A stretch of DNA of 53,012 nt, the filler included, from Bipalium vagum (Eukaryota): NCBI GenBank assembly GCA_037834085.1. It is 2 parts of 2 records of this genome, joined end to end, with 100 filler letters (N's around TTAATTAATTAA, not from the genome) between each part and the next. Parts side by side here need not be neighbours in the genome. Positions count along the whole stretch, not along the records: positions 1 to 23,010 come from JBBMKC010214474.1; 1 more part is not named here. One strand, given 5' to 3'. The translations under genes were made by a program, and so were the position numbers. The notes under the pieces are model-generated. The model did no database searches, was not told where the DNA came from, and saw nothing but the letters and a program-made list of their open reading frames with translations. The first letter of the stretch is position 1. Each line of letters starts with the position of its first letter. This document shows positions 15,690 through 17,000 of the stretch, one piece after another.

Positions 15690-17000
15690 CATGATTGTCG
15701 TATACGGATTTATAATTTTTTGCGTTTCATATCCTTCTGGCCAGCGTATTGTTACAGGGTACTTATTAAGGCATTTTAAATGACTTGATCTCGAATTATC
15801 TCTAAGTGCCTGATACCATTCATAGTATACTTTGCCATTTCCTTTAATACTTGATGAATAATTGTTGTTTTTTCAGGTAATTCACACTCTTCTGGTTGCA
15901 CACTTTGTAACACTGGTAATACATTTTGTTCCCAATTTCCTGGTAAGGGTGGATTTATTAACCAACTTCATAATAATGCTACCATTTCTTTTTCTACTTA
16001 ACTTTTGCTCGTTTTCTTCAACTTGGTCTTGATAGTCAATTTCCAATTGATTATCCCATCCTGGGATTATTCCGTTTTTCAAGATGCTATTTTGTTTATT
16101 TAAAGGTTTTCCAAAATATTTAACTTTTATAATTCTATTTGTTCTTGTCTTTATACAATCTTTTAATTCATCTATTGTTGTGTATGGATCGACCATTATG
16201 GTGGAAGGAAATTCGTCCGGCCATTGGATGCTTACTTTGTAATTTTTTATCTCCATATTGCTCCATATACTTTGGATATTAGCTTCCTTGTTGATTTTTG
16301 CCAACCTGTATTTCCAATTTATAGATTTTCCTCAACTTTTTAAAACTTCATGCGCCAATTCTTGCATTCCATATTGATTTATTCTCCAGTTTCGTAATGC
16401 TGAGAATACTTCACTTCCCATTTTTCTTGACTTTCTGGTTCCTTTATCCATCTTTGTAGTTCAGCTTGTATTTGATTCTTTTCCCTATTTGAGTACATAT
16501 CTACTTTATAAAATTTCTTCTTTTGATTGTTTGTTGTTTGTTTGGGTAAAATTTTTACATTTATCTCGTTATCCCATTTTGGTAATAATCCATTTTCTAA
16601 TATGCTTTTTTCTTGACTGAGTGGTTTCCATAATAGGAAATATTTACATGTTCGTAATGCTGACTACTTTATCTTTTGTATTAATTCAGTCACCGTCATC
16701 AAAGGATTTACTATTTGTTTTGTTTTATATCCTTCTTCCTATATTATTGTTACTTCAAAACTTTTAACTGTTCTATTACTTAATTATCCTGGAGGTTTTG
16801 CTTCTTTATGCATTTTTAATAACTTGAATATTAGATCATGTCTATTTCCTAGACTCTGTAATACTTTATCTATCGTTTCTGTTACTTCTCTATCTTTAGA
16901 TTGTGTTAATAAAGGACTTCTTAACGCAGGAAGCACGTCTGTTGCAAATATTTTTGTTCTACTGGATCTCTTATCCATTCCTGTAAAGGTTCCATAACTT
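15690..17000 (-). repeat. Three diverged ~0.5-kb coding repeats (helical + ubiquitin-like unit) inside the gypsy polyprotein
   Basis: WIRDP / WIKEP / WLINP at 16977, 16450 and 15964. EVTII*EEGYKTKQIVNPLMTV / KVSIQWPDEFPSTIMVDPYTTI / PVTIRWPEGYETQKIINPYTTI, with the Trp position at 16741, 16223 and 15743. Confidence 0.8.

Follow-up and report, generated by a model that had tools for sequence, protein, structure and literature searches.

The closest described systems are Burro/GYPSM1, giant elements of the gypsy type from Schmidtea mediterranea and Dugesia tigrina, which, as described (PMC6431247), combine a Gag bearing two or three zinc knuckles with an env between Gag and protease and carry several ubiquitination and apoptosis domains. 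A Ubi2/SUMO-like motif (PF11976) is listed there in the Gag-to-protease part, between MATH and BCL-2. Gag-Env-Pol errantiviruses with an env of the HSV/gB type are described in a separate account (PMC13524379) from Platyhelminthes, Nematoda and Bryozoa. Here we analyze a decayed Ty3/gypsy element in a 53,012-nucleotide stretch, filler included, of the genome of Bipalium vagum (hereafter, the window), in which three units, each consisting of a helical half and a ubiquitin-like (UBL) half, form a cassette behind the nucleocapsid. A reading made from the sequence alone (the sequence-only reading) knew of no description of such a domain, a claim that is not supported, as Burro's motif had already been listed.

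Anatomy of the element

The element lies on the minus strand at approximately 13150–18630, as delineated by translation, Pfam scan and tblastn, and its parts follow in the order Gag, zinc knuckles, cassette, protease, reverse transcriptase (RT), RNase H and integrase start (Table 1). The retrotransposon context proposed in the sequence-only reading is borne out by the zf-CCHC match upstream of the cassette (E 4e-7) and by RT (E 2e-23), RNase H (E 1e-22) and a protease-like stretch downstream. The nucleocapsid contains three canonical CCHC knuckles (17627, 17466, 17301) and a shortened one (17406), and the broken Gag aligns by tblastn with those of two related loci introduced below (L004, E 4e-25; L010, E 3e-30, through Gag, knuckles and linker). 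The protease-like stretch at 15626–15525 matches the protease motif of L004 (47% over 34 aa, E 0.001), which is itself identified as RVP by Pfam (E 2e-7). No Pfam family was detected at E ≤ 1 in 15006–15650, where a dUTPase-like domain was sought (Burro's, between protease and RT, was found by HHpred); no intact integrase core was found in the window or in the ten related loci, and neither a second LTR copy nor a tRNA gene was found within the window.

The summed depth of X1 contigs peaks at 14999 over 18226–18426 and drops from 6422 at 18427–18627 to 15.8 at 18628–18828. Another peak, of 11368 at 13000–13200, is well above the element body, and the peaks at 13000–13200 and 18226–18627 suggest LTR-like or other commoner repeats at both ends. 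We have high confidence in this anatomy and in the assignment of the element to a Gag-Env-Pol, Burro/errantivirus-like lineage of Ty3/gypsy.

Several other features of the window were recorded. Tc1/mariner-type transposase fragments (HTH_Tnp_Tc3_2, E 6e-14) are located just past the truncated integrase, at 12002–12847 on the minus strand. An uninterrupted cytochrome P450 frame at 19946–21475, also on the minus strand (Pfam p450, E 2e-103), has a GC content of 0.615 and a GC3 of 0.84, compared with 0.28 GC for the window, and long (TTA)n runs border it at either end; the exact protein was not found in the protein collection searched, and the odd composition could stem from gene transfer, from retroposition or from a join made during assembly. 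The two 44-N stretches, 12 bases apart, at 23011–23110 are the filler joining the two parts of the window.

Table 1. Features of the Ty3/gypsy element in the window and the evidence for each
Feature	Position	Strand	Evidence or remark
Likely 5' LTR/leader	18245..18630	-	X1 contig depth; boundary inferred
Gag capsid region, broken	17746..18123	-	Retrotrans_gag E 0.0016, below cut-off
Nucleocapsid	17260..17627	-	zf-CCHC E 4e-7 and CCHC motifs
Unit 1 helical half	16793..17019	-	Frame break inside; translation, self-comparison, shuffles
Unit 1 ubiquitin-like half	16541..16774	-	Stops and two frame changes; shuffle p=0.002, relatives' profile
Unit 2 helical half	16257..16507	-	One frame break, one stop; translation, self-comparison, shuffles
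Unit 2 ubiquitin-like half	16029..16250	-	Uninterrupted frame
Unit 3 helical half	15777..16015	-	Stops, one frame break; translation, shuffles
Unit 3 ubiquitin-like half	15687..15776	-	First two strands only; shuffle p=0.002 vs units 1, 2
Likely deletion junction	just after unit 3 UBL, 15687	-	X2 contig fit breaks
Aspartic protease, active-site motif altered	15430..15626	-	Lower boundary approximate; aligns with L004 protease motif
Reverse transcriptase, largest open piece	14259..14624	-	RVT_1 E 1.8e-23
RNase H	13630..13959	-	RT_RNaseH E 1.2e-22
Integrase start, broken and truncated	13150..13500	-	By-eye reading of translation; without Pfam match

Three helix and ubiquitin-like units

All the peptide stretches quoted in the sequence-only reading were recovered in the minus strand translation, and its central claim, that of three units, is corroborated by a self-comparison that is frame-specific. 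Unit 1 (16984–16520) aligns with unit 2 (16457–16002) at 31% identity over 155 columns, at an offset of 527 nt (E 1.7e-20), whereas other frame pairs at this offset reach only E 0.002–0.007; the start of the unit 3 UBL matches unit 1 at an offset of 998 (E 7.7e-4). Self-alignment of the DNA yields 60% over ~450 nt (E 8e-19) and 58% over 337 nt (E 2e-8). The helix-1 Trp codons, at 16977, 16450 and 15964, are 527 and 486 nt apart, matching the spacing of about 520 and 480 nt reported earlier. When compared with 500 shuffles, the UBL pieces within the window gave p=0.002 in all four pairs and the helical pieces gave p=0.002, 0.002, 0.016, 0.048, 0.062 and 0.20 (n=6). Units 1 and 3 are interrupted by stops and frame changes, and the third, as had been noticed, is truncated, its UBL ending after two strands at ~15687.

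An artefact was considered and rejected on two grounds, the frame specificity of the triplication and the coverage of the region by contigs from four runs; besides run X1, three runs coded as other organisms contain pieces of the cassette. The summed depth of X1 contigs (2095–3818 over the cassette, 2189–7688 over RT and 16–83 past the end of the element), which is not a copy number, indicates that the cassette is part of a repeated family and not a one-off insertion. The window accordingly holds three units, placed between nucleocapsid and protease and lacking a terminal GG. The absence of a C-terminal GG extends to all eight C-terminal stretches available, two from the window and six from related loci, as anticipated, so the UBL cannot be conjugated.

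Relatives of the cassette

Four matches were obtained among 1.84 billion representatives, one of which (P0004) was real; the other three (P0001–P0003) proved on reading to be repeat-driven chance matches. P0004 led to ten loci (L001–L010), all from one metagenome assembly. The longest, L004, encodes Retrotrans_gag, four CCHC knuckles (a number shared with L007), helix A with UBL-A, helix B with UBL-B, a low-complexity linker, an env that is a Monjiviricetes-type fusion glycoprotein (E down to 2e-45) and a protease; its Gag-(helix+UBL)x2-Env-protease span (373–6294) is compact and gave no BIR, BCL2 or MATH match. In L005, a tandem peptide repeat of ~8 copies of a 10-residue unit (4366–4632) lies downstream of the env piece. 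The domain is therefore present in relatives less broken than the window copy, with UBL-A in 9/10 loci and UBL-B in 8/10, next to 3/10 for the env and 1/10 for the protease, the misses arising because those contigs begin or end short of the part.

The UBL-A of the relatives is 31–33% identical to that of unit 2, and 44–46% in the second half, and a profile built from the loci only matches unit 2 (E 8e-10) and unit 1 (16612–16520, E 6.5e-4) of the window. All three UBLs of the window are of the A type; no counterpart of UBL-B was found in the window, and the similarity of UBL-B to the A type is weak (hhalign E 0.014 over 73 columns). Judging by these alignments, the UBL half is homologous to a selected domain in env-bearing relatives. 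Of 3239 candidates in a profile search, 22 were retained, 71–97% identical to L004 and none with a name; since all are close to L004, this search yielded no distant or named homolog. Homologs were likewise not found for the unit 2 ORF among proteins of 262–2000 aa (0/111 candidates) or for the protease-linker ORF (0/1436 candidates), nor was unit 2 found in metagenome stretches (0/160) or viral contigs (0/26), or the L004 module in viral contigs (0/7).

When the helical half of the window is compared with those of the relatives by hhalign, the E-value is 0.016 for helix A and 0.13 for helix B; helix profiles from the relatives did not find the helical halves of the window, and the two are linked by position and pattern only. 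A match of the helical half to HRDC has an E-value of 0.18. Low-E PDB sequence matches (C-type lectin neck, cerebellin fusion, designed repeat) were discarded as sums of repeated weak stretches.

The predicted ubiquitin-like fold

The UBL half is predicted to adopt a beta-grasp fold, as the sequence-only reading had proposed: the predicted model of unit 2 has the beta-beta-alpha-beta-beta order and can be superposed on ubiquitin, and profile A9 matches the ubiquitin-fold chains 6l0l (E 1.7e-4) and 2mlb (E 1.7e-3), the Pfam ubiquitin match (E 0.048) falling short of the cut-off. SUMO is not favoured over ubiquitin, because there are no SUMO chains among the 22 profile matches, PF11976 (Rad60-SLD) gave no Pfam match at E ≤ 2 or ≤ 10, and SUMO and ubiquitin are tied in the top structure-comparison rows; the best ESM Atlas scores, 0.79 and 0.84, with the rows considered for a SUMO-like domain at 0.77–0.82, are leads only. 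The Rad23/Dsk2 UBL, the Rad60 SUMO-like domain and the OASL di-UBL are integral ubiquitin-like domains that likewise lack GG, but the cassette UBL is only 11–20% identical to them, has a charged Ile44-equivalent, and resides inside a retroelement polyprotein, where it alternates with a helical domain.

Selection on the cassette and probable loss of env

Pooled dN/dS over the natural loci is 0.09 for helix A, 0.09 for UBL-A, 0.08 for helix B and 0.18 for UBL-B, compared with 0.21 for the linker, 0.11 for the capsid and 0.01 for env, values that come from the relatives and not from the window's own family, from loci with an unbroken frame over the respective part only (4–6 of 10 for module parts and linker, 2 for capsid and env), and from pairs within one assembly that share ancestry, with some dS near saturation. 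As the linker is constrained as well, part of the signal may only reflect upkeep of an open polyprotein. Between the window units themselves, agreement by codon position is 91, 100 and 69 of 150 (p=4.6e-4) in a protein-guided count that is biased towards positions 1–2; a DNA-only control gives p=0.001 for unit 3 against unit 2 and a non-significant p=0.50 for unit 1 against unit 2. The shuffles, the codon positions and the dN/dS of the relatives uphold the earlier suggestion of an old amplification and place it under protein-level selection.

The two strands of unit 3 are separated from the protease motif by ~100 nt in the window, whereas in L004 ~3,500 nt, holding linker and env, lie between the last UBL and the protease motif. 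The placement of the cassette next to the protease is accordingly correct for the window but does not represent the native layout, since ~3.5 kb of linker and Env intervene in relatives. No trace of env was found in the window (best E 0.76). One contig of run X2 follows the window as far as 15698 and then runs on for 1213 letters that do not match it; a second agrees with the window from 15579 in the RT direction, and its 3192 unmatched letters lie towards Gag. The end of unit 3 and env were probably removed together by an internal deletion that affected either this copy or its subfamily.

Comparison with Burro and errantiviruses

The element shares with Burro a retrotrans_gag-type Gag, several CCHC knuckles and, at the level of fold only, a ubiquitin/SUMO-like motif between Gag and protease, and the mononegavirus-like fusion glycoprotein of L004 occupies the position of Burro's env. 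Unlike in Burro, the three units come straight after the nucleocapsid; the distance from Gag start to protease, ~2.6 kb for the window copy and 5.9 kb for L004, contrasts with Burro's giant internal region; no MATH, BIR, BCL2 or ankyrin Pfam match was found in the window or L004; and env, which Burro has between Gag and protease, is absent from the window and present in 3/10 related loci, the other seven ending earlier. Because it differs in size, in cargo and, in the window copy, in env, the element is not a Burro. The Gag-Env-Pol order of L004 is that of errantiviruses, and its env aligns by eye with the Smed_errantivirus_1 row in supplementary file 3 of PMC13524379; the text and supplements searched in that account contain neither "ubiquitin" nor a match to three UBL-A peptide motifs, and the window copy differs from such elements in lacking env. 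The element works like Burro and the errantiviruses and probably descends from their lineage. No account of a repeated helix+UBL cassette was found in the papers searched; Repbase, Dfam, GyDB, Grohme et al. 2018, the paper on the B-IAP of Burro1 and Figure 2A of PMC6431247 may describe more.

Possible functions

The best overall explanation, with roughly even chances of being right, is a triplicated helix+UBL cassette in a decayed Gag-Env-Pol gypsy element, which likely works as a non-conjugatable decoy. The domain would have been captured from a host gene and its units amplified, which may have raised binding valency; made within the polyprotein directly behind the nucleocapsid, the cassette would stay on Gag or be freed by the element's own protease, and by binding host ubiquitin/SUMO-pathway proteins it would blunt silencing or degradation of the element. 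The end of unit 3 and env were presumably lost from the window copy by the internal deletion. The specific proposal of a non-covalent decoy for such proteins, as putative partners, is plausible but somewhat short of even. The setting fits it, given Burro's ubiquitination and apoptosis domains, the de-repression of Burro upon nuclear PIWI knockdown (PMC8532177) and the requirement of SUMO for transposon silencing in flies (PMC10363806).

The cassette might be involved in other activities. Its units could serve as folded spacers within a long polyprotein or as modules that keep it soluble, with a role in particle assembly or processing and no host target, an idea consistent with the variation of copy number by lineage (three in the window against two in L004), the divergence of the units to ~31% identity and the constraint on the linker; however, the surface motifs of the A-type UBL are kept across both lineages, at the identities given above, and its dN/dS is less than half that of the linker, so we regard spacers as rather unlikely. 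A canonical UBL adaptor, docking Gag on ubiquitin receptors of the proteasome or ESCRT for turnover or enveloped-particle budding, was part of the sequence-only reading. UBLs of the proteasome-shuttle type carry a hydrophobic residue at the Ile44-equivalent position. Assuming that the Ile44 numbering of ubiquitin applies to the alignment positions (alignments to 6l0l and 2faz), this residue is Lys or Arg in UBL-A and Glu in UBL-B; as the cassette lacks an Ile44-type patch, the idea of a plain proteasome or ESCRT adaptor is weakened and appears quite improbable.

Two further possibilities concern the helical half. HIV integrase borrows a host factor of the LEDGF-type fold. The helical half could be a captured domain of the TFIIS-N-terminal (TND)/LEDGF integrase-binding type, a right-handed five-helix bundle. 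The cassette would then anchor the element's integration complex to RNA polymerase II during elongation, or vie for the partners of TNDs, and the UBL would offer a further docking surface; we consider this unlikely. The match to TFIIS N-terminal domains and to the integrase-binding domain of LEDGF/p75 (PMC9987994) is not significant, has no sequence support and is drawn from a relative's domain, not from that of the window. No paper joining the TFIIS N-terminal domain and LEDGF with retrotransposon integrase was found. It is rather doubtful that the lineage multiplied such a captured helical domain along with the UBL, so that the element would encode its own version of this host fold and use it to reach, or to decoy, the machinery of transcription elongation. 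The Leu-x-x-Trp helix pattern of the helical half resembles that of death domains, and the cassette could then interfere with apoptosis signalling as part of a death fold, like the BIR/BCL2 cargo of Burro. Burro1 is described as carrying an anti-apoptotic B-IAP (PMC13465017, citing another paper), but neither of two Pfam scans, one of 12 pieces and one of 14, gave a Death, CARD or DED family, no death-fold entry is among the structure matches listed for the helical half, and the predicted model of helix B has four helices, compared with six in a death fold. We consider a death fold highly improbable.

Implications

LTR retrotransposons seldom carry additional protein domains that have become fixed (PMC9289625), and Burro's ubiquitin/SUMO-like cargo has been known from a one-line annotation only. 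The element is compact and related to the Burro/errantivirus lineage, and its cassette with the predicted ubiquitin fold is real, selected and amplified. The UBL is no mere passenger of giant elements, being carried by compact relatives under purifying selection like that on the capsid, and it has been amplified two- to threefold along with its helical partner. If the helical half were TND/LEDGF-like, this would be a retroelement with an integration-cofactor fold of its own, which would surprise specialists. As the natural domains are small, with 75–90 residues each, the way in which such elements counteract PIWI/SUMO silencing or protein turnover becomes directly testable.
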